Positions 13,059 through 59,009 of a stretch of 64,000 nucleotides of DNA are shown here, piece by piece. Each line of letters opens with the position of its first letter. The first letter of the stretch is position 1. Under the pieces are notes generated by a model, which saw nothing but the letters and a program-made list of their open reading frames with translations, was not told the origin of the DNA and made no database searches. A program made the position numbers and the translations under genes. The DNA comes from a virus (taxonomy: Duplodnaviria; Heunggongvirae; Uroviricota; Caudoviricetes): the IMG/VR virus record IMGVR_UViG_3300035696_000002. One strand, written 5' to 3'.

Positions 13059-13061
13059 ACT

Positions 13062-13436: not shown

Positions 13437-13437
13437 C

Positions 13438-38449: not shown

Positions 38450-38451
38450 AA

Positions 38452-38471
38452 GGGCGAGCCGAAGCCCGCCC
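38452..38471. terminator. bidirectional hairpin GGGCGAGC-CGAA-GCCCGCCC between convergent genes; a T-run follows it on the minus strand
   Basis: Seen directly; the minus-strand reading gives hairpin plus TTTTATTTTT downstream of the OMP gene. Confidence 0.55.
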
Positions 38472-38490
38472 TGAGTGAACCCCATCGCCA

Positions 38491-39288
38491 TTAAAACTTG
38501 TACTGCACCAGAAAGTCCGCCGTCCCCATCACATGACGGCTGTGATCCTGTGCGTAGAAGTCCGGTGGATTGCACAGCGGATATTCTGACGCCGGGGTGC
38601 CGCATGGCTCTGTGATGGTTGTGTGGAACTCGTAGATGCCATACACGAACCGGGCACTCCAGTGCTTTGAGTATTCCGGCGAAGGCATGAAGATCGTGAT
38701 CTCAGGCCCCTGCACGCCGTTGCCGCAGCCCTGACAAACGAAGCCGGGGCTGGTTGGGGTTGCCGGGTAGGAGACTGACTCGTGCTGCGGGGGCAGGAGG
38801 TAGAGCACCTGTGCACGCATGTTGAAGTCGCCGTTCGAGAAGTGATGGAACCAATCCTTGCCGCCGCCAAACTGGTAGCGAATGTCGCCCTGTTTGACCG
38901 CTTGGAAGAAGTTCGTGCCCTTGGTGTAGTTGCTGGTGATTAACTCATTCCACCGCATGCCGCCGCCGAAGTACCAGTTGCCCTGCTTGTAGCCGCAGAA
39001 CCCGGCAACGTAGTCGTCATGGCCCTTGATGTTGTTCTCGGTACCATCGTTGGTCTTTTTACCGTTGTCGATGGCGACGTAGGTATCGCACACCGCGTGC
39101 TTCCCGTTCAAGTAGAGACCACCCTGCCCACGGACTGCAACGGCCCCGTAGCCGTTCGGCATCAGTGAAAGCCCACCAGCGACGTAAGGATGGGGGATGT
39201 AGGACTCGTAGGTTTTGGGTTGAGTGGACTGAGCGACCATGGAGAGGCAGCACAGGCACATCAGCAACAGAATCGTGGTGGTTCTCAT
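38491..39288 (-). CDS. secreted outer-membrane beta-barrel protein (signal peptide, C-terminal ...YKF)
   Basis: Signal MRTTTILLLMCLCCLSMVAQS; alternating aromatic/Gly-rich beta-strand pattern; terminal Phe typical of OMPs. Confidence 0.55.
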   Translation of the reverse strand: MRTTTILLLMCLCCLSMVAQSTQPKTYESYIPHPYVAGGLSLMPNGYGAVAVRGQGGLYLNGKHAVCDTYVAIDNGKKTNDGTENNIKGHDDYVAGFCGYKQGNWYFGGGMRWNELITSNYTKGTNFFQAVKQGDIRYQFGGGKDWFHHFSNGDFNMRAQVLYLLPPQHESVSYPATPTSPGFVCQGCGNGVQGPEITIFMPSPEYSKHWSARFVYGIYEFHTTITEPCGTPASEYPLCNPPDFYAQDHSRHVMGTADFLVQYKF

Positions 39289-39372
39289 AGGTGTTTCCCT
39301 CGGTTCGGACGTATTAAAACGATCTTGGCCTACACTAGCACTTACCGTACCATCCTGTCAAGCAATATCAGC

Positions 39373-39547
39373 CGTGCCACTTCACTCCGCCGAAATGCAC
39401 GATTGTCAACGCAAGGCTCAACCAAATGATTCCACAGAACGCGGCGGCTCCGGCCAGTCCGTCGTTGCGACCGAACAACCAGATAATCAGGGCGAACAGG
39501 AAGCCGATAACGCCCAAGGCAACGCAGATGGCCGCGAGGATGCTCAT
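39373..39547 (-). CDS. small membrane protein (58 aa, 2 TM)
   Basis: MSILAAICVALGVIGFLFALIIWLFGRNDGLAGAAAFCGIIWLSLALTIVHFGG...; stop/start overlap with the upstream gene. Confidence 0.4.
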
Positions 39548-39789
39548 AGCAGCCCGGCGTTGCGGAACGCCTGAATCTGTCCGGCCTTACGTTGCTGGTC
39601 AAGATAATAGAGGATCGCGGGAATGCCGTACACGTAGAACACCACGATGTTGGCAACCGCTACCAGCCCGAGGAACCAGATGGATTGAGTGAACGCGAGG
39701 AGGAGCGGGAGCCCAAACCATGCGGCGACCGCTACCCCGAGAATCTTTGCGGCCTTAACGGCCAAGGACATCTTGTTAGTTTTCGTCAA
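39544..39789 (-). CDS. membrane protein (81 aa, 2 TM)
   Basis: Track ORF. Confidence 0.5.
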   Translation of the reverse strand: MTKTNKMSLAVKAAKILGVAVAAWFGLPLLLAFTQSIWFLGLVAVANIVVFYVYGIPAILYYLDQQRKAGQIQAFRNAGLL

Positions 39790-40123
39790 TTGGGCCTCCC
39801 AAAACTCGATTCACAATCCGCTTGCTGGCGTACACGCGGAATTTCGGATCGACAATGATCTCCCCGGTGCTGCCGTAGCACAGGACGTAGGTGCGGGAAC
39901 TGTGGATGTAGTCCATCCCGGCGTCGATGGTGATCCACGGATCAAGACCGCAATCACCATGGGCATCATCCGTGAGGTAGATGTACAGCGTTTCGTCTAC
40001 AAGGTTCTCGAACGCCCATTCGGCGGTTACCGCTTGGCGACCGCACTGGTCGGCGGCATAAGCCCCCGGATCGTCGCTGGCGTCCACGTAGGTGTGTTTG
40101 ATGACTCCGTCTAGCTTAGCCAT
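39776..40123 (-). CDS. hypothetical protein
   Basis: Track ORF. Confidence 0.5.
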   Translation of the reverse strand: MAKLDGVIKHTYVDASDDPGAYAADQCGRQAVTAEWAFENLVDETLYIYLTDDAHGDCGLDPWITIDAGMDYIHSSRTYVLCYGSTGEIIVDPKFRVYASKRIVNRVLGGPIDEN

Positions 40124-40469
40124 TGCTCACTTCCAATTCTTCGCCAATGCCGAGGTTGATGTTCTGCGGCATCTGGAACATGGGATTGTCCAAGCCGTAG
40201 ACACCGATGATGATGGCGATAGCGAACGCCCGGTCGGTGATGGGAAGGCCCTTTGCGATGCTGCCTGACATGGTACCCGAGGCCTTCGTGTAAGTCAGTT
40301 TCTCTTCGGCCATGCGGCACAGGTCAACGATGTCCATGTTCGCGTAACGCGGCAGGGACAACAGGACAGGGATGATTTCGGCCTTGACCTTCAACGGCTG
40401 ATCCGTTTCGGACACGGCACTCGCCCATCCGTAGAACTTGCTGTCACGTGCGTGTTGAGTACCCGACAT
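40116..40469 (-). CDS. hypothetical protein
   Basis: Track ORF. Confidence 0.5.
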   Translation of the reverse strand: MSGTQHARDSKFYGWASAVSETDQPLKVKAEIIPVLLSLPRYANMDIVDLCRMAEEKLTYTKASGTMSGSIAKGLPITDRAFAIAIIIGVYGLDNPMFQMPQNINLGIGEELEVSNG

Positions 40470-40918
40470 TATTGACCCCCAATCTTGCTGCCGATTTGAC
40501 TGAATACGTTGCCAGCCTGAGAACCGATCAGGTGAATGGTGCCGATAGCGATGACGAGGATGACCGCCAGCATGACGGCATACTCAGCAACGTCCTGCCC
40601 ACGTTCATCACGCCACGCGGCGACAGCCTGTTCACGGGTGAATCCGAACTTCTTCATCAACTTCCCAACCGCGAAGGCCGCGAACTTGGGGTAACGAATC
40701 GTGGCGATGAACTTGCGGATGGCTGCCTTGGTCGGCGGCTTCACTTTCTTGGGGAAGTCGGACGGATGGTAGCCATGGGTGCCATCAACCTGTACGTGCG
40801 TGCCGCCGACGCAGCCAAGCCACGCGATGGGGTCGGCCTTGGTCGCACGGCGAAGTACGCCGATGCGTCCACCGCACTTAGGGCATTCCCGATCTCGAAG
40901 GTTGAGTCGCTTTGCCAT
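40469..40918 (-). CDS. zinc-ribbon domain fused to a C-terminal Flp/Tad-type pilin module
   Basis: N-terminal CPKCGG...C; C-terminal RDERG-QDVAEYAVMLAVILVIAIGTIHLIGSQAGNVFSQIGSKIGGQ matches the Flp prepilin G/XXXXEY site plus the hydrophobic core and a short polar tail. Confidence 0.55.
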   Translation of the reverse strand: MAKRLNLRDRECPKCGGRIGVLRRATKADPIAWLGCVGGTHVQVDGTHGYHPSDFPKKVKPPTKAAIRKFIATIRYPKFAAFAVGKLMKKFGFTREQAVAAWRDERGQDVAEYAVMLAVILVIAIGTIHLIGSQAGNVFSQIGSKIGGQ

Positions 40919-40920
40919 AC

Positions 40921-41094
40921 CTATTTCGTCTCCTGTGTATGTCGCTCGTTACGGTACCGGGCGACGAGAATCCACGCTTCTCCGGCTTTCAGATTGAACT
41001 TCATTTGCATGCGTCCAACCATTGCCTCCGGCTTGAGGTTCGGTTGGGCGGTACGCCACATGTCCAGTGCGTCACGATGTTGCTGTGTTAGCAT
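40921..41094 (-). CDS. hypothetical small basic protein
   Basis: Internal ATG of track ORF 40921..41202 (-). Confidence 0.4.
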   Translation of the reverse strand: MLTQQHRDALDMWRTAQPNLKPEAMVGRMQMKFNLKAGEAWILVARYRNERHTQETK

Positions 41095-41399
41095 GCCCAC
41101 TCCGTTGCGTCCGGGATGGTGTCGCTGTTGTCGGCTTCCGCCCGGAACCGCTCGATATGTTTTTCGCAGAAGGCGTTCAACTCCTCCAGCGAACCAAACC
41201 ACGGCGTCAGCGTGCAGCGGTAGAGCCCGGCTTCCGGCTCCGCTTCCGCTCCGATGGCGAGAACGGCCTTCACGCGGGTCTCGTCCTCAGCATCGGACAG
41301 GGCCTCGATGTCTTGGAGGATGTACAGGTCGAACAGGCTGCACACTTCCTCGACAAAAGGTACGTCCGCGAGTTTGCCGTTCGTGTAGTCGTGACGCAT
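41088..41399 (-). CDS. hypothetical acidic protein
   Basis: Track ORF. Confidence 0.5.
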   Translation of the reverse strand: MRHDYTNGKLADVPFVEEVCSLFDLYILQDIEALSDAEDETRVKAVLAIGAEAEPEAGLYRCTLTPWFGSLEELNAFCEKHIERFRAEADNSDTIPDATEWAC

Positions 41400-41755
41400 T
41401 ACTTCTTTCCTTTCTTGCTGCCGAACAACTCCGCCATACCCTTCATGTATCTCACTTCCTTGCGGATATCAGTCGCCGTCAGGCGGTTGGCATACTGAAA
41501 GTGCCAGCGGTCATGCACGGCAAGGTGAATGAGTTGGACAGGCTTCAACGAGAACACGACGTACTGAGCGTACCCGTCGCCCACCGGGAACCGCACGATC
41601 TCGCCAGCCAGTTCGCTGGAGCCATTGTCTTTGGCATACTTCACAACGTCGGCGATATGCTTCTGCGTCGCCTTCTCGTATGCCTCGAAGTCGAACGGAT
41701 GGGTGATCTCTGGAGCCGCACCCACTTCTTTCGGAGCCGAGTAAATCTTTGCCAT
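41399..41755 (-). CDS. hypothetical protein
   Basis: Internal ATG (MAKIYSAPKE...) of track ORF 41399..41806 (-). Confidence 0.5.
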   Translation of the reverse strand: MAKIYSAPKEVGAAPEITHPFDFEAYEKATQKHIADVVKYAKDNGSSELAGEIVRFPVGDGYAQYVVFSLKPVQLIHLAVHDRWHFQYANRLTATDIRKEVRYMKGMAELFGSKKGKK

Positions 41756-42582
41756 TACCGCACCCCCTGAGCCGCCTTTTCCAACTGGCGGCGGAATTTG
41801 TTCCAAGCCACTTTCGCGGCCTGTTCTTCGTCCAGCATCCCATCCTGATAGTAATCGTCTTTGTGGTTCAGCTTGTATTCCTCGACCAGAACTTTGACAG
41901 CGGCATCGTCGATGATGACGGCCACGGGCTGAGCCGGGGCGTACAGGGCGGCAGCCGCCTCACGTCCGTTGATCCGGTCACGCACGGCACTCAGGGATTC
42001 CCCCTTGCCGACGAACTTGCCATCCTGAAACACGGTCTCCAAGTGCGAAGTGTCCGGGGCAACAGTGTGGCTCACCTTGTAGGAATCGGTTTTGCGAATC
42101 GGGTCGATACCCGGCAGCGTGGCGGCGAACCCGGCGTTGACCAAGTGAATGCACTCGGGGCCGAAGCCAGCTTCGATTGATTCGGGCACGGTCAGCGGAC
42201 GAGCACAACGACCGCAGCGGCCCTCGTGGTATACTTCGAAAATGCCGAGGCTGCCACGCTTGAACGACTCGAAAGCCGCGATGAAGTCCACAACTGACGG
42301 AGCAGACTTTCCGGCACGGGCCTTCTGTCCGCCCCAAATGAAGCCCTCTTTCTTGATGAAGCCGATGTAAGCGTAGTCGCGGGTGTTGTCGGGGCCGTTC
42401 AGGAGAGCGACGAAATGGCACGAGGGGTCATTCGGATTGCGTTTTGTTGCTTCGGTGACCTTATACGTGTGACGTTCACCAGACTCCGTGTTGCGGAGGG
42501 TGAAGATCGCGTTGCCAGCGAGGATGAACTTCAAAGTGTTGACGGCTTCTTTGAGTTGCCCGGTCTGGACTGTGTCGCTCAT
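41755..42582 (-). CDS. hypothetical protein with a CxxC...GPxC zinc-finger-like motif
   Basis: Track ORF; GRCGRCARPLTVPESIEAGFGPEC. Confidence 0.55.
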   Translation of the reverse strand: MSDTVQTGQLKEAVNTLKFILAGNAIFTLRNTESGERHTYKVTEATKRNPNDPSCHFVALLNGPDNTRDYAYIGFIKKEGFIWGGQKARAGKSAPSVVDFIAAFESFKRGSLGIFEVYHEGRCGRCARPLTVPESIEAGFGPECIHLVNAGFAATLPGIDPIRKTDSYKVSHTVAPDTSHLETVFQDGKFVGKGESLSAVRDRINGREAAAALYAPAQPVAVIIDDAAVKVLVEEYKLNHKDDYYQDGMLDEEQAAKVAWNKFRRQLEKAAQGVR

Positions 42583-42649
42583 GCCTATAGTATACTGGTT
42601 CCGGGGATGTTTTGTCCAGTAGGTAACCTGTAGTCAGGAAAGGACTTAC

Positions 42650-43056: not shown

Positions 43057-43857
43057 ATGGCTCAACTCGATCCAGAACGTGAGGCGGATAGGGCTGCCGG
43101 GAAGGCGGCACTCATTCTGCTATTCGTTTTCATCCTGCTGTTCATCCTTCTGTTCGGGATTGTGCCAGCCGCCCACGGGGTATCCCTCGTGCCCGGCCAA
43201 CCCGCCAAGAAGCACCACCGCCAAAAGAAGCAGAAGCAGCCCTCGTGGTTTGACTACCGGGTTTTCATTCCATCGCACGAAAACCTGCTGGCTCAGAATG
43301 CCGCCATCGACGAGATGGGACTGCCTCGCATCCGGGATGACCAGTCGTTGAAGTCGTTGGAAGCGGAAGCTGCCCTTGTGCCGATCACGGACAACGAATA
43401 TGTCAGAGTGAGCCCGAAGCTTGAGACTAAGCGACGCTACTGTCGCCCATGGGTTGACGCCTTCCTCCAAGAGTTGGGGCGGGACTACTACACCAAGTTC
43501 GGAGAACCCATTCAAGTCAACTCCGCCGTCCGTACAGTCAAGACACAAAGCTGGCTGCTGCGTTGGAACCACAACGCGGCCCCGGCCCATGGAGAGACCG
43601 CATCGGCCCACCTTGCGGGTGTCGCTGTAGACCTGCAACGCAGGGGATTGACCCGAGAAGAAATCCGTTTCATTCAAAAAGAACTCCTGACCTTCGCGAA
43701 GATCAACATGGTGATCGTTGAAGAGGAGTTGAAGCAGCCATGTTTCCATGTCGTAGTCACAGAGGATTATCCTGTGCCGCCGAAGATAAATGTGGTAATC
43801 TCAGAGGAAGAACAACGGAAGGTGCTCAATGGAATCCTTAACGATCCAACAAAGTGA
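43057..43857 (+). CDS. peptidase M15 (VanY/L-Ala-D-Glu peptidase-like) endolysin with an N-terminal signal-anchor
   Basis: SAHLAGVAVDL matches the M15 SxHxxGxAxD zinc motif; N-terminal TM ALILLFVFILLFILLFGIV. Confidence 0.55.
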   Translation: MAQLDPEREADRAAGKAALILLFVFILLFILLFGIVPAAHGVSLVPGQPAKKHHRQKKQKQPSWFDYRVFIPSHENLLAQNAAIDEMGLPRIRDDQSLKSLEAEAALVPITDNEYVRVSPKLETKRRYCRPWVDAFLQELGRDYYTKFGEPIQVNSAVRTVKTQSWLLRWNHNAAPAHGETASAHLAGVAVDLQRRGLTREEIRFIQKELLTFAKINMVIVEEELKQPCFHVVVTEDYPVPPKINVVISEEEQRKVLNGILNDPTK

Positions 43858-45536: not shown

Positions 45537-45718
45537 AATACAAGATCACAGTTGAAGTCACAGAACTCGATGAGCACGGCAACCCCAATCAAGGTGAGCA
45601 GTATTGGGCGTTGAAAAAAGTAGGCACGCTGGCGGAGATCGCCCCGGCCATGAAAGAGATCGGTGACCAAATTGAAAAGACGTTTACCAACCCAATCCCA
45701 ACCCCAATCGCAAATTGA
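45533..45718 (+). CDS. hypothetical protein
   Basis: Track ORF. Confidence 0.45.
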
Positions 45719-45728
45719 AAGGCCACGT

Positions 45729-46322
45729 ATGTCCCTAGTTCCTATTGTCATTGAGAAGTCCGGTTACAACGAGCGTGCTTACGACATCTACTCACGCCTG
45801 TTGAAAGACAACATCATCTTCATCGGCGAACCGATTGACGATCTCGTTGCGAACAGCGTCATCGCCCAGATGCTCTTCCTCGCCCAAGAAGACGACGAGA
45901 AGGAAATCGAAATCTACATCAACTCACCGGGCGGGTCTGTCACAGCCGGGCTGGCAATTTACGACACCATGCAGTACGTGAAGAACGACATCGTCACGGT
46001 CTGCGTCGGTCAAGCTGCATCCATGGCAGCCATCCTGCTGGCGGCTGGCACCAAGGGCAAACGTTTCACCCTGCCCAATGCCCGAATCATTATCCACCAG
46101 CCCTCGGTCTGCCACATTGGCGGACAGGCTACGGATGTCGAAATCGCCTCGCGGGAACTGCTGCGTATGCGTGAGAAAAGCATCAAGATTCTCGCCAAGC
46201 ACACGACCACCAAGGCCGACCAAATCAAGCTGGACATCGAACGGGACTTCATCATGGAGCCGGATCATGCCAAGGAATACGGCATCATCGACGGGATCGT
46301 GGAGAAAAAGCGGAGATCGTAA
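45729..46322 (+). CDS. clpP: ATP-dependent Clp protease proteolytic subunit
   Basis: Catalytic-triad contexts GQAASMAA (Ser), IIIHQP (His) and DIERDFIM (Asp); typical ClpP length and order. Confidence 0.8.
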
Positions 46323-46665: not shown

Positions 46666-47571
46666 ATGGGAATCGTTTTCTTTCTGATGTTTATCGCCCT
46701 GCTAGGCGTGGGCGTGTTCCGCTCTCTCGGTATCACCAAGGACTCTCGCACGGATGATATCTCTCTGCATTTCTCGGCCCTAAAGGGCGTTCCGTTCTAC
46801 ATTGCCTCTGTTCTTGTCTTTACCCTCTGGCTTTCGTTCACCACGGTTGACACAGGCTATCGCGGCGTCGTGCTGCGGTTCGGTGCCACGACCGGGCGAA
46901 CGCTCGATCCGGGGCCGCACTTCATTCTCCCGGTCGCTGAGTCTGTGGCACGGGTCAACGTTCAAACCCAGATCGTGAAACCAGACGAGATGGCAGCGTC
47001 GCATGACCTTCAGATCGTGCACACGCAGGTCACCCTCGCCTACTATCAAGACCCGGCCTACGCTGGATATGTCTACTCACAGCTTAGCGACGATGCTGCA
47101 ACCCGTATCATCAGCCCGGCCATCCTCGAAGCCATCAAGGCAGTCACCGCCAAGTACGACGCTGAGCAGCTTGTTGCAAAGCGTGCCGAAGTGCGTGATG
47201 GCATCGAAGACTTCGTGAAGCAACGCCTGACGCCTCACCACATTTTCGTGGACTCGGTGAGCATCACGGACTTCAACTTCTCCGATGACTACAACAAGGC
47301 CATCGAAGCGAAGGTGACCGCTCAGCAGAACGCCCTCAAGGCCCAGAACGATCTGACCCGTATCAAGATCGAAGCTGACCAGAAGGTCGCGGCTGCCGAG
47401 GGTGAAGCGAAGGCTCTGGCGTCCCAGAAGCAACAGATCACGCCGGAACTGCTCCAGCTTCGTACCATCGAAATGCTGAACAACAAGTGGGATGGACATC
47501 TGCCGGAGAACTACTACGGCGGCACCGCTCCTCTTCCCATGATGGATGTGCTCAAGAACCACAAGCAGTAG
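46666..47571 (+). CDS. SPFH/band-7 (prohibitin/HflKC-like) membrane protein
   Basis: N-terminal TM, then GYRGVVLRFGATTGRTLDPGPHFILP and a long coiled-coil tail typical of band-7 proteins. Confidence 0.65.
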   Translation: MGIVFFLMFIALLGVGVFRSLGITKDSRTDDISLHFSALKGVPFYIASVLVFTLWLSFTTVDTGYRGVVLRFGATTGRTLDPGPHFILPVAESVARVNVQTQIVKPDEMAASHDLQIVHTQVTLAYYQDPAYAGYVYSQLSDDAATRIISPAILEAIKAVTAKYDAEQLVAKRAEVRDGIEDFVKQRLTPHHIFVDSVSITDFNFSDDYNKAIEAKVTAQQNALKAQNDLTRIKIEADQKVAAAEGEAKALASQKQQITPELLQLRTIEMLNNKWDGHLPENYYGGTAPLPMMDVLKNHKQ

Positions 47572-48691: not shown

Positions 48692-48961
48692 ATGGGCAAG
48701 AAGTTAGGGGTATTTCGCTGCTTTTACTGTGACCGACAACTCAGTCGGCAAAAGAAAACCCGTGACCACATGACTCCCAAGAGCCGCAACGGCAGCAGTG
48801 CACCACGCAACATCGTGGATGCATGCAGGCCGTGCAATAATTTGAAGGGATGTTTGACGCTGGATGAATTCCGTATGGTGATCGCGTACCGCATGGGAAT
48901 CGCACACAAGCCGGAGTTCAAATTTCCCGGCGAACTGCGACGCGAACACGCCGGAGCTTAG
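48692..48961 (+). CDS. HNH endonuclease
   Basis: CFYCDRQL...TRDHMTPKSRNGSSAPRNIVDACRPCNNLKG is a classic HNH (CxxC...DH...N...CxxCN). Confidence 0.7.
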   Translation: MGKKLGVFRCFYCDRQLSRQKKTRDHMTPKSRNGSSAPRNIVDACRPCNNLKGCLTLDEFRMVIAYRMGIAHKPEFKFPGELRREHAGA

Positions 48962-50142
48962 TACTCGTATCCAGTCAGCGTCAGGTTGATGACGTTTGTC
49001 GTCGCTTGATCCAAGTGGCTCAGGCCGATACTCACCGTACCATTACCTGCGATTTCCAAACCATCCGGGATGTCCATGCTCATCTGTCCACCAACGCCTG
49101 TTGTTGCCGAAATGCCGAAGACTTCTGGGCATTGAACGAGGACGGGGCTAGTCGCGATTGTAGCTCCCGCTGTATTGGAACGCAGAGTGACACGGGAGAA
49201 CGGCACAGCAGCCGCACCTGCACGAACGCTTACGGAAATGTTTTGAATGCGGAGGGTCTTGCCTGACGTGATCGTGTAGCTGGTTACACCTGTTGTCACC
49301 GTCCCACCCTTGTTCTGTGACAAAGAGAATATTGTTTCAGATGTGACACCCGCTACCGCTGTTGCGGAAAGTGTGACGGCGGTACGGCCTGCGTCCTTGA
49401 GTTCCTGTACAGAGAAGCCCGTAGAGCCCTGTGTGCCTTTTGTGAGGGTGGTGCCGACGACTGTGGCATTTAGCAGGGCCGCATTGCTCTGCCCAACTGT
49501 CGGGACAGGTTCAAGGCTAACCTGAGAGCTTTGAATGATGAAGGTGACAGTGCCACTCCCTGTAATCGGGGTCGTCAAATTCACACGAAGATAGGCAAAG
49601 CCCGCTGTGTCAAATTCGAACGAAGAAGTGCCGAGAGTGGAGTTCCACGAAGTTACGGCATTATACGCACTCGCCTGTGCTCCCTGAATCGGCAACCAGT
49701 TAGCCCCGTCTTGAGAGACCTGAAAGGCGATGACGCCTGCCGAAACAGTTCCCGAAACGACGAAGCCGACTTGCACGTTGTTCTGCCCGTTGAGTGGCAG
49801 AGTCCACGTGGTGTTCGTCGCAGTCGCGGAAGTCCATGCTTGTGTAGTGCCAGAAAGTGTGCCTGAGTTATAGGCCAACAAAATCGTCGCGGTTCCTTCC
49901 CCTGTCCAAGGGCCTGAAAATGTTAGGACAATGTTTCCGAATCCGTCGAGCGTGGGAACGTATGTGGGCAAGTATCCGTCCGGGTTGATTGCCGTGGCGG
50001 ATGTTGGGAGTGTGCCTGAGTTGACAACTACGGCAGCTTGCGGGGCAAACGCGAACAACTGGTTGAATGAGTAGGTGAAGACAGTGGAAGAACCATCTCC
50101 GACAAGAGTGAGTGCCACTGCAACTGTTTGCTGAATTGCCAT
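48958..50142 (-). CDS. fibre-like structural protein paralog (394 aa), probable tail fibre/receptor-binding protein
   Basis: Shares the N-terminus MAIQQTVAVALTLVGDGSSTVFTY and the C-terminus ...NLTLTGYEY with the 971-aa gene; T/S/G/A/N-rich; carries a repeated beta-domain. Confidence 0.6.
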   Translation of the reverse strand: MAIQQTVAVALTLVGDGSSTVFTYSFNQLFAFAPQAAVVVNSGTLPTSATAINPDGYLPTYVPTLDGFGNIVLTFSGPWTGEGTATILLAYNSGTLSGTTQAWTSATATNTTWTLPLNGQNNVQVGFVVSGTVSAGVIAFQVSQDGANWLPIQGAQASAYNAVTSWNSTLGTSSFEFDTAGFAYLRVNLTTPITGSGTVTFIIQSSQVSLEPVPTVGQSNAALLNATVVGTTLTKGTQGSTGFSVQELKDAGRTAVTLSATAVAGVTSETIFSLSQNKGGTVTTGVTSYTITSGKTLRIQNISVSVRAGAAAVPFSRVTLRSNTAGATIATSPVLVQCPEVFGISATTGVGGQMSMDIPDGLEIAGNGTVSIGLSHLDQATTNVINLTLTGYEY

Positions 50143-50178
50143 TTTGGATTGTCCCCTTTGATTAGGGGAGCGAAAGTT

Positions 50179-53100
50179 TTATTCTTCCGTCCACTCAATC
50201 CAAACATCGCCAATGGGCGTCGTACCCACAGCACTGACGCAGATACCGATAAAGTCGGACGTGCCGCGTAAGACCAAGGTCTGATCGTTATTGATCCCAA
50301 AGTTCCACTCGATGAGGGGGATGTCTACGCTGACTGCTGCGGTCACGATTTCATAACGTTCAGTTGCGAGCACGTATACGTTCGTTGCGGTGGTGATAGC
50401 CGATGTGGTTGCGAACACAGTTGCAGTGTTGGCTGCATTGTTGGTATCCAACTTGCCAACTGTGACGCCGCCCGTACCCGCACCGCCGCCTGAAATCGCC
50501 GAGAAGCGGCGAAGGATAACGTCGCATGCAGTGCCAGTTCCCGCCGATGCGGAGAAGCGGATTTTTGTGATACGGACGGTCTTGGTGCTGCTCCCCGTGA
50601 CATAAATGGTGGGTATCGTAGATGATCCGAGCAGCGTGTAAGCCACAATGCCCGCACGATAGGTCTGCTTGCGGCCTTCTTGGTTGATGTAATGGCTACC
50701 CGTAGTATCAACCTGCTGGGCAACCTGCTGCCCCGTGGTGAGGGTGGGGGCGGTGGAATTGTAAGTCCCCATCGGGGAGTTCACTGAAGCAGCGTTAACA
50801 GTCGCCCAGTACGGCGTGACTGAACCACCAGCCGTGGTGGTGCTGACTTGCAGACGCAGCCCTGTGTAACCGTACAAAATGATTTTGAACGCACGGTTGG
50901 TTGACGCAACTAGCGTGTAGGGTAATGTAATCGGCAGCAAGCTCGTTGGGTCAATTACGCAGCTTGCGGGAATCGTAGCCCAGTTGATGCCGTCAGCCGT
51001 AACTTGGAATGTGATCGCACCAGCCGAGATACCTGAACCTTGGTCGAGTTGCACCATGTACGCTTGCGGCTGCACGCCGGAGCCGGGGGAGTCAATAGTC
51101 TGGAACGTGCCGGAGGTTGTACCCGCAGCCCATGTGGTACCAGTTGTGAAGTTCTGCCAAGGCTCAGTGAAGACCGGGGCAATGACTTCAACGGATGCAG
51201 GGTTGACAGTCGAGCGTACAAGCACTGTGCCTGTGCCCGACGTAAACGTGGTGCAACGAACACGGAAGTGGGTGAAGCCAGCCGCGATTGTGCTACCTTC
51301 AAAGTTCGTGTTCGGTGAAGCCGCACCTGTAAATGTCGATGCTTCAGAGGACGTACCCGTAAGGTGAATATACTGAGCTTGCCAAGTCGTACCGCCGTCC
51401 GTGGATGCTTCCGTGACAACCGTTCCAACGAGGGTTCCTGACATCTGGACACGCAACGAGGACGCTCCGACAACCGGGAACACAGCAGCGGAGTTTGCAG
51501 TTGGAGTCCCTGAAACTGCGTTCTGACCGTTTGCCCACGTGACAGACGTGGAGGCCGCGTCAGCAGCGGTGATGTTGATGGCGTTCGATGTGTTGTCGGT
51601 GTAGACGCTCTCAGTAGTACCGAACGAACCACCACCCATAACCATCGTGATGTTCGTGGCATTGGTGGTGTTTAGAACTTCAGCTTGGTAGTTCCAGTTG
51701 GTCGCGTAAGTCCATGGCGTCGTGCCTTGGTTCGGCACAACGATGGTGTGCATCACAACCCAGTTGCCATCGGGGCTAAACACTTCAAGAACAATTGATG
51801 CCGCACCCAACCAGCCGCCACGCAGACGGTACAGGTTTAGGTTCGTTAGGGTCAGGGCTGTTGGAGTGCCGCCCTGAGTGAATTTCGAACCAGATGACCC
51901 CGTGCACTGATCGCCACTGAAGCTCGCACGAGCAACGGATGGGGCGGAGTTGGCCGAGAAGCTGCCCTGTCCCGTTCCAGCCTTGAAATAAGAGATACCG
52001 AATGTCGTACCTTCAAAACCAACGCATACGCCGTTCGTTGGCGTGTTTACTGCACCTGTAAGAGCACCGATACGCTGATGGGATGCTGCCACACCCGTAG
52101 TGAATGCCGCCGTGAAATAGAAATACCACTCGTGCGACACACGGTAGTTCATTCCATACGTGGATTGCAGGTTGGCACTGGTGCTCGCTGCCGCAGTCGT
52201 TGCAAGGGTGACCGAGCCATTGCTGTAGGTTGCAGTGCCCGTCGTACCTGTCAACTGGGTTAAAGCAGTGTTCTGTCCTTCGGAGAAGTCCTGTTGCCAT
52301 TGCGAGTTGCGGATGCAGTGGATGATGTCACCGAAAGAATCCAATGAACCATTCTCAGCGATCTTCAGGTTGCCGAGAATGTCCATCTGCAACTGTGCGG
52401 GCATACCCTGCGAATATGTAGTGGAGGCGTTGTCCTGCTGTACGGCAGCGGCGACAACCAGTGGCTCACCGATGTAATCATCGTCAATCTGGACACGGTC
52501 TGTGTCGATGAAGTAGGTGTAGTCAACCAATAAACTCGTGGAGCTAACGGGGGCAGTGCCGCCGTTTAATGTGTAGTAAACCACCTGCATCGCATTGTAT
52601 GGGCCGGGGATGTGCAGGGTATTCGTGGCAACGACAACACCGTCAATCAGCAGCGTAGCTTGGTTCGCCGAGAGACTGATTGAATACGTGTGGTATGTGC
52701 CCGAGTTGGTGCCGAGCGGGTATGTAAATGCTGTGGTCTGCGTATCTGTCGCAGCCGAGGACGACTGAGTGATGAAGTTGCCCGTTGTGTTGGTCGTACC
52801 TGACAGCGAAACGACAGCAGTGTAGTTCGGCGTGCTGCTCAGGGTATCTTGGAAACCGAAGACCACGGTCTCGTTTGCGATACGCTGAGAGACTTCAACA
52901 TAGGTCTGAAGCAAAAGCGGCAAGTAATCAGCCTGTGCACCGATGATGCCTGTGAACGCCGAGGCCGTAGTGCCTGAGGCAATTGTCAGGACAGAACTTG
53001 CGACGGCGAACGAACCACCGGAACCTGTTAAAGTACGCCAGTTCGTTACCTGACCCGCAGCGGTGGTCGCGGTACCCGGATAGTTGGATACGAGTTGCCC

Positions 53101-55191
53101 CTCGGATGTGTTGACGATGTAGTTGAGTTGCGTCCAGTCGGTTTCTGGATCGGACGAAATCTTGATATACTGACCGATCTTGATCGCCGTGCCGTTGCCA
53201 TTACCGAACTCTGGCGAGGCGGACGTGACAAGAGCAGAGCTTGCCGTAGTGGTGATGTTGGCCCCGATGGTTGTGTTCAGCGATGTACCTGAGAAGTCAT
53301 CGCGGAAAGAACCTTCGTCCGTAAACACCGCACTACGTGTGATGGAGTTGCCGACAGCGTCGATAGCTTCACTGGATGAAAGCGTGGTGCCATAGTTACC
53401 GGGGTCAGGCACAAAACCAGACGTAATCAGAGCATTGTTGTCAACCTGTAATTGTCCCGTCGTGTTCAAGCTCAGCGGATTTAACGTAGCGTTGCTGTAG
53501 GCTGCTTGTGCTGAGGTTGTCCAGCCGCCCGCCATCGAAACCAGCGGCGGCTCGCTCGCGGTACCGATCAAACCACTGGTAAGGGTGGAAGGGTCGCCGA
53601 TCTCGTTTGCACGTAGTGTGCAGGTTGCGGTGCCCGACGTGAAGGCCGACACGCGGACGCGATAGTTGGATGCACCCGCCACACCGATAATACTCTTTGA
53701 GGTTGCGGTGTTGGATGAACTGAAAACAATAGTTTGCTGGATGACGTTGGTCGTCGGGTCGTTGAAGTAGGTGCCGACCCATGTCGTACCGCCGTCCAAA
53801 GAGCATTCAGCAATGATGGTGCCGATAAGAGTTCCAGCCGCCAAGAACATGCCGACGTGGGTGTAACCAAAAGCGTTAATCGTTGCAGCGGCGTTCAGGG
53901 CGTTCAGGGTACCCGGTGTACCAACCAAGTCTGCAAGGGCACCAGAGGAGAACGAACCTGTGACTTTCAGGTTTCCGTTAAGGTCAGTTTGGAGGGCGGT
54001 GAGATCACCAGAAGTGATTGTCGGGGCCGCAGAGTTGTACACACCGCCGACCTGAATTACGTTTGCAGGTGCGGTTGTGTTCTGGGCCGCATCTACGATG
54101 CCGCCAGCATTGCCAACGATGCGAGTTGTCCACGTCCCGGACTGTTGAGCAACCACACTTAAGCTGGCGTTGGTAATGAACGCCTCAGGGGGTGCAATAT
54201 AGCTCGTCGATGACTGAACGGTGACGTTGCCCGTGCCAGTGATGGCAGCCGTTAAACGGAGCCGCAGGTAGGGGTAGCTGCGGACATCGAATGTTAGAGC
54301 GAACGGAGTTGCCAGACCGTTGAGGCCGAAACTGGAAAGGTTTGTCTGTCCCCCGTTTTCCAGCCCGCTGATCGAGAACCAGTTGGTGCCGTCCAAGCTG
54401 GCATCGAATACCACAGTACCGCCTGTCAGCGAGCCGCTAGGAACAAACGTAGTTGTTACGGAACCCAGAATCGTGTTCGTAATAATATTCTGCGTAGCAC
54501 CGTTGGTACCGTTCGTCGAGTTCCAAACGATGACGGAGGTGTTTGTGCCTCCCGGCATGTTCGTGACAGAAGCGTTGACGCCGAACACGTTCCCGGTCGG
54601 AGCCGTACCGTAGGCTGTGACGGTTCCAGTGAGGGCCGTGCCGTTGAACGAAGTAATGTCTGTCTGAGCCGCATAGACCGTCCCGGTCGGGTTGACACCT
54701 GTACGGCCTCGGAGAGTACCACCGATGTTGACACCCTGATAGTCTGCCGAAGCTGGGACAGCCGACCCTGTTGCCGAAGCCGCTGCGTTGCCGCTGGAGC
54801 CGCCCGTGATGTTGACATTCAGTGATGAGCCCGTAGCAGTGAGAGCAGTTCCAGTCGCGTAAAGGTTGGTGGGCGGAACTGGTGTAGCGGAAGAGGACGT
54901 TACCGCCCCCGAGGTAAAGAGCAAATCGACTTCGAACGTGTACTGCACGTTGTTCGTCGGTGCAGCCGTGAACGTGATAGTGATGTTCCCGTTTGCGTCT
55001 ACTACTGCACTGGTGATCGCAATCGGAGGATTTGGGACTAGAACAGCAGACGGAACAGTGCCGTTGGCGACGGGCGGGTTAGAGCCGCCGACGCCGTTCT
55101 GATAGAGGTTCTGTGCCGGGAAGACGAAAGTCGTTGAGCTTCCATCTCCCAGCAGTGTGATCTCAATTGGAACTAACTGCCGTATTGCCAT
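50179..55191 (-). CDS. giant fibre-like structural protein (1670 aa)
   Basis: Uninterrupted 5 kb ORF; the paralogous N-terminus MAIRQLVPIEITLLGDGSSTTFVF; highly T/S/G/A/N/V-rich; several copies of the ...DG-x-NW...ITGTGxVTV domain. Confidence 0.65.
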   Translation of the reverse strand: MAIRQLVPIEITLLGDGSSTTFVFPAQNLYQNGVGGSNPPVANGTVPSAVLVPNPPIAITSAVVDANGNITITFTAAPTNNVQYTFEVDLLFTSGAVTSSSATPVPPTNLYATGTALTATGSSLNVNITGGSSGNAAASATGSAVPASADYQGVNIGGTLRGRTGVNPTGTVYAAQTDITSFNGTALTGTVTAYGTAPTGNVFGVNASVTNMPGGTNTSVIVWNSTNGTNGATQNIITNTILGSVTTTFVPSGSLTGGTVVFDASLDGTNWFSISGLENGGQTNLSSFGLNGLATPFALTFDVRSYPYLRLRLTAAITGTGNVTVQSSTSYIAPPEAFITNASLSVVAQQSGTWTTRIVGNAGGIVDAAQNTTAPANVIQVGGVYNSAAPTITSGDLTALQTDLNGNLKVTGSFSSGALADLVGTPGTLNALNAAATINAFGYTHVGMFLAAGTLIGTIIAECSLDGGTTWVGTYFNDPTTNVIQQTIVFSSSNTATSKSIIGVAGASNYRVRVSAFTSGTATCTLRANEIGDPSTLTSGLIGTASEPPLVSMAGGWTTSAQAAYSNATLNPLSLNTTGQLQVDNNALITSGFVPDPGNYGTTLSSSEAIDAVGNSITRSAVFTDEGSFRDDFSGTSLNTTIGANITTTASSALVTSASPEFGNGNGTAIKIGQYIKISSDPETDWTQLNYIVNTSEGQLVSNYPGTATTAAGQVTNWRTLTGSGGSFAVASSVLTIASGTTASAFTGIIGAQADYLPLLLQTYVEVSQRIANETVVFGFQDTLSSTPNYTAVVSLSGTTNTTGNFITQSSSAATDTQTTAFTYPLGTNSGTYHTYSISLSANQATLLIDGVVVATNTLHIPGPYNAMQVVYYTLNGGTAPVSSTSLLVDYTYFIDTDRVQIDDDYIGEPLVVAAAVQQDNASTTYSQGMPAQLQMDILGNLKIAENGSLDSFGDIIHCIRNSQWQQDFSEGQNTALTQLTGTTGTATYSNGSVTLATTAAASTSANLQSTYGMNYRVSHEWYFYFTAAFTTGVAASHQRIGALTGAVNTPTNGVCVGFEGTTFGISYFKAGTGQGSFSANSAPSVARASFSGDQCTGSSGSKFTQGGTPTALTLTNLNLYRLRGGWLGAASIVLEVFSPDGNWVVMHTIVVPNQGTTPWTYATNWNYQAEVLNTTNATNITMVMGGGSFGTTESVYTDNTSNAINITAADAASTSVTWANGQNAVSGTPTANSAAVFPVVGASSLRVQMSGTLVGTVVTEASTDGGTTWQAQYIHLTGTSSEASTFTGAASPNTNFEGSTIAAGFTHFRVRCTTFTSGTGTVLVRSTVNPASVEVIAPVFTEPWQNFTTGTTWAAGTTSGTFQTIDSPGSGVQPQAYMVQLDQGSGISAGAITFQVTADGINWATIPASCVIDPTSLLPITLPYTLVASTNRAFKIILYGYTGLRLQVSTTTAGGSVTPYWATVNAASVNSPMGTYNSTAPTLTTGQQVAQQVDTTGSHYINQEGRKQTYRAGIVAYTLLGSSTIPTIYVTGSSTKTVRITKIRFSASAGTGTACDVILRRFSAISGGGAGTGGVTVGKLDTNNAANTATVFATTSAITTATNVYVLATERYEIVTAAVSVDIPLIEWNFGINNDQTLVLRGTSDFIGICVSAVGTTPIGDVWIEWTEE

Positions 55192-55220
55192 GAATCATCC
55201 TTCAATCAGGAATCTGTAGT

Positions 55221-58136
55221 TTAGTATTCGTAACCAATCAGCGTGATCGTGACCGCACCGTTGGTGGTACCGCTCACCATGCTGATGCCAACCTGCTGAC
55301 CGCCTGCGATTTCCATGCCGTCAGGGATACTCTGTTCCGCGTAACCTGCGTTGTTGGTTGAACCGCTGCTGGAGACCAGCAACCCGGCGACAACCTGAGA
55401 TGACGTGGTAACAGTCGTACCTGAACGAACACGAACCTTGACGTACTGAACGGTGGAGTTCGTTTCCTGAACTGAAGCGTACAATCCCTGCAAGCGAAGC
55501 GTCTTACCCGTGGTGACGGTGTAAGTTGTCGCCGCAGCCTGACCCGTGCCGCCCTTGTTGACTGCGATGCTGATGAGGGCTTCTGCCGTGATCGAGGTGA
55601 TTGCGTCAGTGAACCATACCAAGTAGGTACGGCCAGTGTCCTTACCTTCACGAACTGTGAGAGGCCCGGTTGCCGTTGCTTGTGCCGCGTAGCCAACCGT
55701 GACCGTACCCGTACCAGTGATAGCCGGGGACAGACGCACACGGAAGTATTGCCAACCGCTGATGTTGAACGCGAAGCTGATGTACGTCGAAGGCTGGAAC
55801 GCATAGGACGAAACCGCAGAGCCGCCTGCCGGGTTGACGCCGGAGATGAGCACCCAGTTCGAGTTGTCGTTCGAGACTTCGAAGTTGATTGCACCGCCCG
55901 TAAGTGTGGTGGTCTGGTTGAGCGTGACAACCACGGTGTCGTAAGCGAACGTTCCGTTGACCAAGACGACAGCGGTGTTGTTCGTCGTCGCCGAAGTCCA
56001 CGATGCCGCTGCCGTGTTGCTCGTACCTGCCTGACCGACCGCGATAGGCGTGTTCGGGGAGATGCTGACAACCAAGGCTTGGTCAGCAGCGACCGCAGCC
56101 GTGGAAGCGGCCTTGACAGCCGCCGTGTTGCCGCCCTGAACGATGGACGAGAGCAAGCCGTTGCTGGCAGTCATCGCTGCACCGTTTGCAGACGCGATGT
56201 CCGTCAGGATCAAGCCGTGGCTGTCCAACTGGAGGGCAGAGTTCTGACCCGCCGTCAAGGCAGAGGTCGTACCTGTGGCGTTGTTGAACGTGCCGCCGAC
56301 CGAGATGTTGTTTGCGGGGGCCGTAGCAGCCTGTGCCGCATCAAGCGTGACGGCAGTTGCACCCGAGATGGCGACCTTCGCCACACCGTTTGCACCAGTG
56401 ACAACGGCGTTACCGTTGATCTGGGTGAGGTTCTGTGACCATGGAGCACCACCTTGGTTGGCGGTGACAGTGCCGCTCACCGTGACCGTGTTGGTCACGA
56501 ATGAGTTGACGCCCATGACCTCGGTTCCGGTCGGAGCCGTACCGTAGGCGGAAACCGCAGCCGTGATGGCAGTGGTACCGTCAGTGATACGCATGAAGAT
56601 CGGGTTAGCCGTGGTGTTGGCTGCTGCCGTTGCCGAGATCGGCACCGGGTTCGTGGCGGAAACAGCATTGTTGCCAACGAACAATTCGGCATTCGTGCCG
56701 AGAACCTTACCCGTGGCTGCCGTTCCCCACGTGGTGATGGCGTTTGCCGTGAGAACGTTGGTGCCATCCGAGAGGTTGGTGAACAGCGGGTTGGTGCCGC
56801 TGAGTGTCGCACCGTTAACCTGTGCAACGTTGACAGCGAAGTTGCCCGTGCCTGCGTTCGCCGTTACAGTACCAGTTACGGTGACTGTGTTGGTGACGAA
56901 AGCGTTGACTGCACCGACGTTGCCTGCTGGGGCTGTGCCGTAAGCTGTAGCTGCGGTAACCGCTGTGCCGCCCCACTGCGAGATGTTGACAGAGGATGCA
57001 GAAGCAGAAGGTGTGATGATTGCGTAAGGCAGAACCGACCAGTTCGGTGTGACTGTACCTGTGCCCGTAATGGCGGTACTCAGGTTCAAACGAACGGCTT
57101 GGAAGCCCTGCATCTGAATCAAGAATGCTGCGTTCGTGCTGGTGACGAACGTGTACGGGTTCGTCAACTGAGCGAAGGTCTGCGGGTTGAGAAGCTGGGC
57201 GACTGGGATGCTTACCCAGTTCGAGCCGTCATAGGTTCCTTGGAACGTGACCTGACCACCAGTAAAGGTGCCGGATGATTGGTCAAGCTGAACGACGATG
57301 GCCGGGGCACCCAACGGTGCACCGATTGTGGCTGTGCCAGTCGGGTACTGGAATGTGCCGCCAGTGGTGCCAGAGTTCCACGTCGAGCCTGCCTTGGCTT
57401 GAACGCCGGGGAACGAAAGCTGGTTGCCAGATTGATCGGCCTGCAACGACATCGTCTGCCCGTTGGTCGGGGCGGGCTGTGTCGTGTTGTACTGCTGAAG
57501 GACGCCTACACCATTCGTTGGTGCGGTGCCTGCGGCAAGCGTGGCATCAAGAGTTGCACCAGTGTTGCCGACCATGCGGGTCGTCCACGTGCCGCTCTGG
57601 GTTGCTGCGACTGTACCGCTGACTGTGACGGTGTTCGTCACGAATGCGTTGACGCCGATTACGCTGACTGCACCCGGCGAAGTTCCATAGTTCGAAGGTG
57701 AGCCGAGAGCCACGCTGTTCCATTGGGTGATGTTGTCAACCCATGGTGATGTGCTCTGCGTGACTGCGACCGTACCGCTGACGGTCACGGTGCTGGTGCC
57801 GACGAGTGTGACGTTCTGCGTCTGTGTCGGAGAGGAAGACGTTGCACCACCGGAAGTGAAGTACAGGTCAACTTCCAGTGTGTATTGCACACCGTTTGAT
57901 GGGGCCGATGTGAAGGTGATCGTGATGTTGCCATTTGCATCAACCGTCGAAGATGTGATTGGGACTGGCGGGTTGTTGACGACAACCGAACCCGGTGGAA
58001 CAGCAATGCCGGAGCCGTAGGGGATGGAGCCGCCCACGCCGCCCTGATACATATTCTGAAGGGCGTATGTGAATGTGGTAGAGGAGCCATCACCAACCAG
58101 CGTGATGAGAATCGGTACTATCTGTTTAATGGCCAT
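55221..58136 (-). CDS. large fibre-like structural protein (971 aa)
   Basis: N-terminus MAIKQIVPILITLVGDGSSTTFTY, C-terminus ...VTITLIGYEY; internal near-duplicate VTVSGTVAxxQ segments. Confidence 0.65.
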   Translation of the reverse strand: MAIKQIVPILITLVGDGSSTTFTYALQNMYQGGVGGSIPYGSGIAVPPGSVVVNNPPVPITSSTVDANGNITITFTSAPSNGVQYTLEVDLYFTSGGATSSSPTQTQNVTLVGTSTVTVSGTVAVTQSTSPWVDNITQWNSVALGSPSNYGTSPGAVSVIGVNAFVTNTVTVSGTVAATQSGTWTTRMVGNTGATLDATLAAGTAPTNGVGVLQQYNTTQPAPTNGQTMSLQADQSGNQLSFPGVQAKAGSTWNSGTTGGTFQYPTGTATIGAPLGAPAIVVQLDQSSGTFTGGQVTFQGTYDGSNWVSIPVAQLLNPQTFAQLTNPYTFVTSTNAAFLIQMQGFQAVRLNLSTAITGTGTVTPNWSVLPYAIITPSASASSVNISQWGGTAVTAATAYGTAPAGNVGAVNAFVTNTVTVTGTVTANAGTGNFAVNVAQVNGATLSGTNPLFTNLSDGTNVLTANAITTWGTAATGKVLGTNAELFVGNNAVSATNPVPISATAAANTTANPIFMRITDGTTAITAAVSAYGTAPTGTEVMGVNSFVTNTVTVSGTVTANQGGAPWSQNLTQINGNAVVTGANGVAKVAISGATAVTLDAAQAATAPANNISVGGTFNNATGTTSALTAGQNSALQLDSHGLILTDIASANGAAMTASNGLLSSIVQGGNTAAVKAASTAAVAADQALVVSISPNTPIAVGQAGTSNTAAASWTSATTNNTAVVLVNGTFAYDTVVVTLNQTTTLTGGAINFEVSNDNSNWVLISGVNPAGGSAVSSYAFQPSTYISFAFNISGWQYFRVRLSPAITGTGTVTVGYAAQATATGPLTVREGKDTGRTYLVWFTDAITSITAEALISIAVNKGGTGQAAATTYTVTTGKTLRLQGLYASVQETNSTVQYVKVRVRSGTTVTTSSQVVAGLLVSSSGSTNNAGYAEQSIPDGMEIAGGQQVGISMVSGTTNGAVTITLIGYEY

Positions 58137-58146
58137 TGTCTATTCC

Positions 58147-59007: not shown

Positions 59008-59009
59008 AA

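Follow-up and report, generated by a model that had tools for sequence, protein, structure and literature searches.

Flp/Tad (type IVc) pili serve in adhesion, surface sensing and phage adsorption. Their pilin subunits are made as prepilins with a class III signal peptide, the core of which is a leader ending in Gly followed by about 20–25 hydrophobic residues with Glu at +5 (PMC10191384). Prepilin leaders are cytoplasmic and variable in length and are cut at the cytoplasmic face (by TadV, which has no methylase domain, in Tad systems), and the unusually long leaders of type IVb and Streptococcus sanguinis pilins indicate that prepilin peptidases tolerate variable leader length (PMC10191384). 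In the Caulobacter Tad pilus the pilin N-terminus lies toward the filament core and the C-terminal end faces outward (PMC11067988), and Tad systems with a secretin have previously been reported in Acidobacteria (PMC4793230). Our full-text literature search returned no report of a phage- or virus-encoded pilin or major Tad pilin, and pilins are not mentioned in broad jumbo-phage overviews or in a study of Acidobacteriota viruses. Here we describe a gene of this kind in a 64,000-nucleotide stretch ("the window") of the IMG/VR virus record IMGVR_UViG_3300035696_000002, which lies within a 463,051-bp contig (ENA ERZ27256877 k141_2995943). The gene (40469..40918, minus strand, ATG to TAA) encodes 149 amino acids (aa) plus stop, a zinc-ribbon protein joined in frame to an Flp (Tad) prepilin module. 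On sequence comparison it is a fusion, specific to the window lineage, of a large-phage zinc-ribbon gene and an flp gene that is held at a fixed locus by a clade of ~330–465 kb phages that probably infect Terriglobia.

The C-terminus of the 149-aa protein reads ...W-R-DERG/QDVAEY (the slash marks the predicted cleavage site), followed by a hydrophobic helix and a polar tail. The leader-proximal recognition motif is D104-E-R-G107 (40598..40609, minus strand), and predicted cleavage after Gly107 would leave a 42-aa mature pilin, Q108–Q149 (40472..40597, minus strand; QDVAEYAVMLAVILVIAIGTIHLIGSQAGNVFSQIGSKIGGQ), that ends in ...QIGSKIGGQ. The class III signal peptide core is present as ...DERG/QDVAEYAVMLAVILVIAIGTIHLIG, with Glu at +5 and, as in Flp, Tyr at +6; E112-Y113 and the hydrophobic transmembrane or pilus-core helix occupy 40523..40585 (minus strand), with a hydrophobic stretch of 19–21 residues (EYAVMLAVILVIAIGTIHLIG) and then a polar tail of 17 aa. 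The mature part is helical in the AlphaFold model and has no globular domain, which is the form of Tad major pilin subunits, small single helices of about 40–60 aa. Reduced to G-x4-EY plus a hydrophobic run, the motif has a single occurrence in the six translated frames of the window, and none of 200 composition-matched resamples contains it. An earlier first-pass annotation, made from the DNA letters, had proposed an Flp prepilin module with an intact G/XXXXEY site in the last 42 aa, and both translation and homology bear this out.

The homologues retrieved from 5.8 billion proteins fall into two disjoint sets, one matching the N-terminal domain only and one the Flp module only, and no other protein has both halves. 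The second set holds about 90 proteins that match the last ~45 residues only (E = 1e-16 to 1e-5, 47–93% identity), many of them named "Flp pilus assembly pilin Flp" by JGI, as is the 149-aa protein itself; the matches so named have E values of 1e-16 to 1e-9. The predicted mature pilin is 70–93% identical to Flp modules. The G, E and Y of the processing site show little or no variation across 25 family members, and DE-x-G is kept in all phage and host prepilins compared. The module aligns over 35–37 residues with the 45-aa Caulobacter PilA, and 15 of the 25 family members match the Pfam family Flp_Fap (PF04964) at E <= 1, the best at E = 2.7e-5. Whole-protein searches of Pfam, NCBIfam and PHROGs gave nothing significant, and neither half has a nucleotide or protein match among deposited phages (INPHARED) or plasmids (PLSDB).

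The genomic surroundings of the cellular homologues settle the ancestry of the module. A scan of 185,579 species genomes for the closest cellular modules, from which 80 loci were kept, found them (71–80% identity) almost entirely in Terriglobia/Acidobacteriota metagenome-assembled genomes (MAGs) from peat, bog and palsa, with two of the 80 loci binned as Binatia. At about 12 of the 80 loci, in Terriglobia, the pilin gene lies directly 5' of genes for RcpC/CpaB (100 bits), a secretin (158 bits), a ParA-like TadZ, a T2SSE ATPase (216 bits) and two T2SSF proteins, and at two loci (L032 and L061) a Peptidase_A24 gene follows flp immediately (59.6 bits, cut-off 26.5). The Terriglobia pilins that adjoin a TadV-type peptidase are 73–75% identical to the window module. 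An association with tad and peptidase genes is found for these homologous host pilins, not among the genes surveyed around the window's own copy. Because close homologues stand at the head of tad operons and beside TadV, we regard the module as a member of the Tad-pilin family by descent. By homology, the last 46 residues of the protein are genuinely related to Flp/Tad pilins, and their recognition and cleavage site is intact. The same gene annotations indicate that the likely host lineage, Terriglobia, has both tad machinery and a TadV-type peptidase, which answers a suggestion of the first-pass annotation to look for a tad/cpa locus in whatever host is likely.

Two other arrangements were seen at the Terriglobia loci. 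At about 50 of the 80 (L010–L089) an orphan flp immediately follows the genes for a HisKA_3 kinase and a GerE response regulator (e.g., L096 7438–9937 and L097 7444–9943), which suggests that a dedicated two-component system controls the orphan pilin. A conserved protein of 485–541 aa with 7–8 membrane helices and no Pfam match is encoded immediately upstream of the tad-heading flp, beside GT87 glycosyltransferases (L036 6282–7907, L060 6226–7770, L032 6160–7617), and may be involved in pilin modification.

The other half of the protein, residues 1–103 (40610..40918, minus strand, by direct translation), is a zinc ribbon with a small helical bundle. Its CPKCGG motif spans residues 12–17 (first zinc knuckle, C12-P-K-C15, 40874..40885, minus strand, at least 90% conserved in 26 homologues) and its partner ligands are Cys36 and His41 (40796..40813, minus strand, both invariant in the same 26). 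The AlphaFold model of the fusion (predicted local distance difference test (pLDDT) score 84) has two beta-hairpins, on which all four ligands sit, two short helices and a long helix, 95–147. The domain is strongly basic, with 23 K+R against 8 D+E and a net charge of about +15. The N-domain set of homologues comprises 27 proteins of 87–117 aa (P0001–P0027) that match residues 1 to ~102 only (E = 3.5e-50 to 3e-24, 62–82% identity). They form a zinc-ribbon family of large phages that stands alone at ~105 aa, and similarity extends over their full length, including the C-x2-C ... C-x4-H ligands and a helical C-terminal part ending ...REQA.AAW. These relatives terminate in ...REQAVAAWKARV followed by a stop codon, and the N-terminal part is therefore a complete protein in its own right. 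The domain has no significant match to a Pfam, PHROG or NCBIfam family and no informative neighbour in fold-library searches. A joint MAFFT alignment of both halves set "AEYAV" under "AAFAV" and was discarded. The first-pass annotation had described an N-terminal zinc-ribbon domain of roughly 105 aa; the separate zinc-ribbon domain stands, while the length needs correction, the domain boundary lying at W102/R103 and 107 residues preceding the predicted cleavage site.

The fusion is not an assembly artefact, because the identical 149-aa protein is found on eight contigs from the JGI, ENA and Logan assemblies, four of them 0.2–1 Mb long; an assembly chimera was considered and rejected on this ground. 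The window is collinear with loci from other contigs of 332–465 kb, and at this one locus flp occurs in four states. It stands alone with a leader of 10–12 aa (L090 MKSLWNDERG, L092 MLKYLWKDESG, L100/P0122 MKSLFTDERG); it is a short gene separated by a few bases from an independent upstream gene, whose product has two transmembrane helices (2-TM) and ends in ...DRSL before the stop codon (L093, L095); it continues the reading frame of that 2-TM gene as one fused gene (L006, L008 and L009, and most of the 20 further database proteins in which 90 residues or more precede the module); or, in the window lineage only, it is fused to the zinc-ribbon protein. DE-x-G/QD[VI]AEY is kept in all four. The 2-TM proteins (L006 8001–8432, L008 8001–8459, L009 8001–8474, L093 about 7100–7484, L095 7580–7975) combine a pair of membrane helices with an acidic linker and a CGDP[DN]CxEC Cys knuckle. 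In both types of fusion, the part that precedes the Flp leader probably binds metal. Small indels interconvert the split and fused 2-TM/flp forms. The 2-TM-Flp fusions and stand-alone relatives (P0028–P0036, P0042, P0045 and P0058; L090, L092, L093, L095 and L100) are up to 93–95% identical in the mature part, and the mature part of the stand-alone, 52-aa P0122 of L100 is identical to that of the window at 39 of 42 positions. Nucleotide homology between the L100 flp gene and the window starts exactly at codon D104, which places the fusion breakpoint at W102/R103. The protein, in which the first-pass annotation saw a Tad-pilin mimic, is thus no isolated case: it is a lineage-specific fusion of an flp gene found at one shared locus throughout a clade of huge phages, with a near-identical stand-alone version.

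A simple loss of a stop codon between neighbouring genes in the N-domain relatives was ruled out, since there is no flp within 6 kb of the N-domain genes and no N-domain within 8 kb of the 2-TM-Flp loci. Elsewhere in the window neither flp nor the N-domain recurs, and the 2-TM gene is absent from it. The family is present on only nine of 2.9 million IMG/VR contigs. Short flp genes also occur on two IMG/VR contigs of 102 and 37 kb that lack synteny with the huge phages (L091 7986–8144, with a DUF5317-like membrane protein upstream, and L094 5269–5424, respectively); either viruses acquired these genes independently or host DNA was binned as viral.

The fusion could be a recent neutral or mildly harmful accident, in which a small deletion removed the zinc-ribbon stop codon and the flp start codon and left one or both products impaired. 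The fusion does occur in one lineage only, as an identical protein on all contigs, its closest flp relative (P0122) is unfused, and similar small indels switch the 2-TM/flp pair between split and fused. Nevertheless, the frame is intact on all eight contigs from several samples, translational coupling to the next gene is kept, and both halves retain all their conserved residues. The 2-TM-flp fusions, moreover, persist across lineages with saturated synonymous sites, and N-terminal fusions to flp are therefore tolerated in the long term. We consider such an accident improbable.

Among eight phage copies of the flp module the proportion of synonymous differences (pS) is at saturation (0.5–0.9), that of nonsynonymous differences (pN) is 0.09–0.34, and the ratio of the corresponding rates (dN/dS) is about 0.08–0.3 where computable. 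The same saturation is seen when phage copies are compared with host genes, and it rules out recent capture of flp from a host. Judging from these substitution patterns, the module is old in the clade and under purifying selection. The phage copies have also diverged from those of hosts in a particular way. The tail QIGSKI(Q/GGQ) is present in 20 of 30 modules from phage contexts and in 0 of 82 from host MAGs, and the 15 modules nearest to that of the window are all from phage contexts. The phage/host frequency overlap is 0.92 over mature positions 1–16 and 0.73 over positions 17–38, and the discriminating positions are 17, 18, 22, 27, 29, 35 and 38, together with the C-terminal extension. By this comparison the phage copies are a pilin sub-family of their own that differs mainly in the C-terminal half, the half predicted to face outward.

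This distribution of differences bears on whether the module acts as a working subunit or as an inhibitor. Small phage proteins are known to shut down type IV pili, among them Tip of phage D3112, Aqs1 of DMS3 and PfsE of Pf4, and the phage pilin, or the uncleaved fusion, might likewise be a pilus poison or peptidase decoy that blocks TadV or the Tad platform or caps the filament, with loss of pili and exclusion of superinfecting pilus-dependent phages. Pilus poisoning with superinfection exclusion was the leading proposal of the first-pass annotation. The recognition site is indeed kept in all variants, and the bulky N-terminal additions (zinc ribbon or 2-TM protein) could make slow or non-productive substrates. 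On the other side, L090, L092 and L100 carry plain short prepilins with leaders of 10–12 aa and no bulky addition, and none of the inhibitors just named is, to our knowledge, a pilin homologue. No variation is seen in the assembly core, Glu5 or Tyr6, and the copies diverge only in the exposed half, as expected of a subunit that polymerises; because the core (positions 1–16 with Glu5 and Tyr6) is so strictly conserved, an assembly-competent pilin fits better than a poison, which we think unlikely.

We propose the following course of events for an assembly-competent pilin, in which we favour the second proposal of the first-pass annotation, release of the mature peptide by the host prepilin peptidase. 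The C-terminal hydrophobic helix would insert in the host inner membrane in the normal prepilin topology, with the basic N-domain in the cytoplasm and the short tail outside. A host TadV/CpaA-type A24 peptidase, acting at the cytoplasmic face, would then cut after Gly107 and yield a 107-aa zinc-ribbon protein, about the length of its stand-alone relatives, and a 42-aa membrane pilin. The latter, with its host-like core (positions 1–16, Glu5 and Tyr6) and phage-specific C-terminal half, would enter the host Tad machinery and alter the surface or the supply of pili during infection. The sequences show the homology, the two-part architecture, the synteny, the selection and the occurrence of tad genes and TadV in the host lineage; membrane insertion, cleavage, pilus assembly and a benefit to the phage are steps that we infer from them. 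A basic cytoplasmic domain ahead of an Flp helix matches prepilin topology, and a 2-TM protein, its second helix leading back into the cytoplasm, should fit equally well. In-frame fusion of an upstream gene to flp would be cheap because the peptidase trims any leader, and this cheapness would explain why flp has been fused to different upstream genes in different phage lineages. The benefit might lie in evading rival pilus-dependent phages, in sustained adhesion or elsewhere. Taking the chain as a whole, that is, that host TadV cuts after Gly107 and releases both an assembly-competent pilin and the zinc-ribbon protein, we judge the chances for and against to be about equal. It is possible, if rather doubtful, that a phage pilin matured and assembled by the host gives the pili a new surface (cf. 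lysogenic seroconversion), either blocking rival phages or keeping adhesion, and that flp is a fusion-tolerant gene, joined repeatedly to upstream genes, that yields two-in-one precursors for a host enzyme to separate.

Two rivals concern the junction itself. The Flp helix might be an uncleaved tail anchor that just tethers the zinc-ribbon protein to the inner membrane, its pilin ancestry being irrelevant in the window lineage. In the AlphaFold model the helix is continuous across the junction, and the hydrophobic segment sits at the very end of the chain, the position it has in tail-anchored proteins. Yet the zinc-ribbon protein is a soluble protein of ~105 aa in its 27 relatives, and a tail anchor leaves unexplained the retained DERG/QDVAEY, the extracytoplasmic tail (given the 39 of 42 residues shared with stand-alone P0122), the stand-alone flp genes and the fusions in which the partner brings two membrane helices of its own. 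We hold this to be rather improbable. In the other rival, initiation at the internal Met88 would make a 62-aa prepilin with a 20-aa leader (MKKFGFTREQAVAAWRDERG) and the long fusion product would be a by-product. Met88 is at a suitable distance, and the leader so formed resembles host leaders in length and charge. However, only GGGAAG, 3 nt upstream, precedes the Met88 ATG, against GGAGG ~12 nt upstream in the stand-alone L100 flp, and the promoter scan found no promoter-like site within the fusion gene. The residues K-L-M-K-K-F are also conserved in relatives without an Flp tail, so that Met88 did not evolve as a start. Internal initiation seems to us very improbable.

Returning to cleavage after Gly107 and assembly of the released pilin, several observations weigh against that reading. 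The whole protein has no match to Flp_Fap at E <= 10, and the isolated tail scores 14.1 bits (E = 0.041, profile positions 2–45 of 46), below the gathering cut-off of 32.2 bits. A family profile finds the solved Tad pilins in the Protein Data Bank (PDB) weakly (8u1k at E = 0.13 and 8u2b at E = 0.22), in the exact Glu5/Tyr6 register, and the hhalign comparison with mature Caulobacter PilA is likewise weak (E = 1.2e-4, probability 55%). The zinc-ribbon-Flp fusion is known from a single lineage with one identical protein on all eight contigs, so that selection on the fused state itself can only be supposed. Pilin leaders are commonly about 10–30 aa, and those of the host and stand-alone phage versions are 10–25 aa, whereas 107 residues precede the cleavage site here, 103 of which are an independent zinc-ribbon protein; a folded domain of that size immediately before the recognition motif might hinder access of the peptidase, given the modelled helix 95–147. 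No tad gene is present among the called genes of about 20–64 kb or the sampled ORFs (open reading frames) of 1–20 kb of the window, and no A24 active-site motif in the window or the phage flanks (64 kb of about 463 kb covered). The assignment of a Terriglobia host, which we consider likely, follows from pilin similarity only. With regard to Flp_Fap, the first-pass annotation held that lack of a significant match to this profile would refute the pilin assignment, and taken literally that is the outcome. We judge this test too strict because the family, in which a precomputed Pfam domain is present in 0 of the ~120 matches listed (including the JGI-named Flp proteins), nevertheless heads canonical tad operons.

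The fusion gene lies in a probable transcription unit (38451..42618, minus strand) defined by gene calls on an identical JGI contig and by a promoter and terminator scan. All of its features are on the minus strand. A promoter-like site (42618–42589) precedes its first gene, which encodes a DUF6011 protein (41755–42582), and genes for proteins of 118, 103 and 57 aa stand between this and the fusion. The ATG of the next gene (40116..40469, 117 aa) overlaps the stop codon of flp (TAATG), and beyond it are a 115-aa gene, a small 2-TM protein gene (39544–39789 in the ORF list; 39544–39771, 75 aa, in the gene call), a second small 2-TM protein gene (39368–39547), a gene for a protein with a signal peptide (38491–39288) and a terminator-like hairpin (38472–38451). 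The unit is collinear with L006, L008, L009, L090, L092, L093 and L095, the common layout being DUF5715 and a 72-aa gene on one strand and DUF6011, the 103-aa gene, the Flp-ending gene and the 117-aa gene on the other. The 117-aa gene is a conserved partner of flp: its homologue directly follows flp at every phage locus examined, by homology in L006, L007, L008 and L100 and by conserved motifs in L009, L090 and L095. It has 11 homologues among the 5.8 billion proteins, none annotated, and an AlphaFold pLDDT of only 60. PADLOC found nothing in ten proteins of the operon. Divergent from the flp operon is a gene (43057–43857, plus strand) for a DUF5715 protein that carries a membrane anchor at its N-terminus and weakly matches endolysin PHROGs (E = 3.5e-4); together with the 2-TM and signal-peptide genes of the operon it may form an envelope or lysis module.

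Such neighbours raise the question of a lysis function, in which the small hydrophobic peptide would be a holin-like or antiholin-like protein of a lysis cassette, the membrane-anchored DUF5715 protein, the two small 2-TM proteins and the secreted protein being its other members. A holin has no need, however, of about 80% identity to host pilins or of invariant cleavage and assembly residues, and the peptide has a single transmembrane helix and matches no holin family. We give this explanation very little weight.

The genome as a whole reads as that of a huge phage of Terriglobia of ~463 kb. Its clearest phage hallmarks in the window are a ClpP-type head-maturation protease (phrog_94, E = 1.6e-40) and an adjoining Band_7/stomatin-like protein (45663–46322 and 46666–47571, plus strand), and it also carries genes for an RNA ligase, a clamp loader, a NUDIX protein and a nucleoside hydrolase and many small genes without assigned function. 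Syntenic IMG/VR contigs measure 455,708 bp (UViG_3300032770_000001) and 332,300 bp. A size above 200 kb and phage hallmark genes, the marks of a huge tailed phage, are both present; the phrog_94 match and these contigs also confirm the original description of the fusion product as a phage protein. No capsid, portal or terminase gene was seen within the 64-kb window, the sequence has no nucleotide-level match among deposited phages, and scans of the window against Rfam and for tRNAs and tandem repeats gave nothing relevant. A minus-strand block (48958–60571) contains ORFs of 1670 aa (50179–55191) and 971 aa (55221–58136) that match no Pfam or PHROG family and may encode structural or tail proteins. 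About 9 kb (~5200–14500, plus strand) has no coding-strand ORF of at least 150 aa and is packed with genes of 70–145 aa, as in the early regions of large phages. An ORF at 6652–7671 (minus strand) has no gene record, and we take it for a probable shadow ORF. We note that a 794-aa gene with faint intein and LAGLIDADG signatures lies near a clamp-loader gene in a related contig of ~458 kb (L006 11922–14306, L007 5671–8055).

If a phage pilin is in fact matured and assembled by its host, this would be a new viral route to remodelling a surface organelle of the host, and it would come from the Acidobacteriota, a phylum with a scarcely studied virology. The recurrent fusions would then be a natural test of how long or how folded a processable prepilin leader can be, with a bearing on the substrate rules of A24 peptidases and on cleavable membrane-targeted fusions, and pilin similarity would serve as a host-linkage marker for uncultured soil phages of ~460 kb.

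Tip, Aqs1 and PfsE are superinfection-exclusion inhibitors that bind the ATPase or the platform and target the type IVa pili of Pseudomonas, not Tad pili. The protein described here resembles them as a small phage protein that would act on a host pilus system, and PfsE is likewise a small inner-membrane peptide, but unlike them it is a pilin homologue. The long-leader type IV pilins differ from the fusion in that their leaders, of a few tens of residues, are unstructured, whereas that of the fusion is an independent folded protein exceeding 100 residues. With the Flp/Tad major pilins (Caulobacter crescentus PilA, 8u1k; Flp, 8u2b) the module shares the DE-x-G / x4-E-Y site, a single-helix mature peptide of ~40–45 aa without a globular head, an in-register alignment, and close homologues that head tad operons and adjoin TadV; it differs from them in being phage-encoded with no tad genes nearby, in its sub-threshold Pfam score, in its phage-specific exposed tail QIGSKIGGQ, and in carrying a folded 103-aa zinc-ribbon domain instead of a leader of 10–20 aa. 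The Terriglobia host pilins (from Ca. Sulfotelmatobacter and Acidobacteriaceae MAGs; consensus M..LLW.DE.G/QDIAEYAVMLAVILVIVVGTIRLIGSNANNVFSQVGSAIQ) are 71–81% identical to the window module as a whole and essentially identical to it at positions 1–16, but their leaders are short, and their genes either stand at the front of tad operons or are orphans next to a HisKA_3/GerE pair. The flp genes of the related huge phages lie at the same locus, with the same downstream partner, and belong to the same pilin sub-family; in these the N-terminal partner is the 2-TM protein or is absent, and the zinc ribbon sets the window lineage apart.

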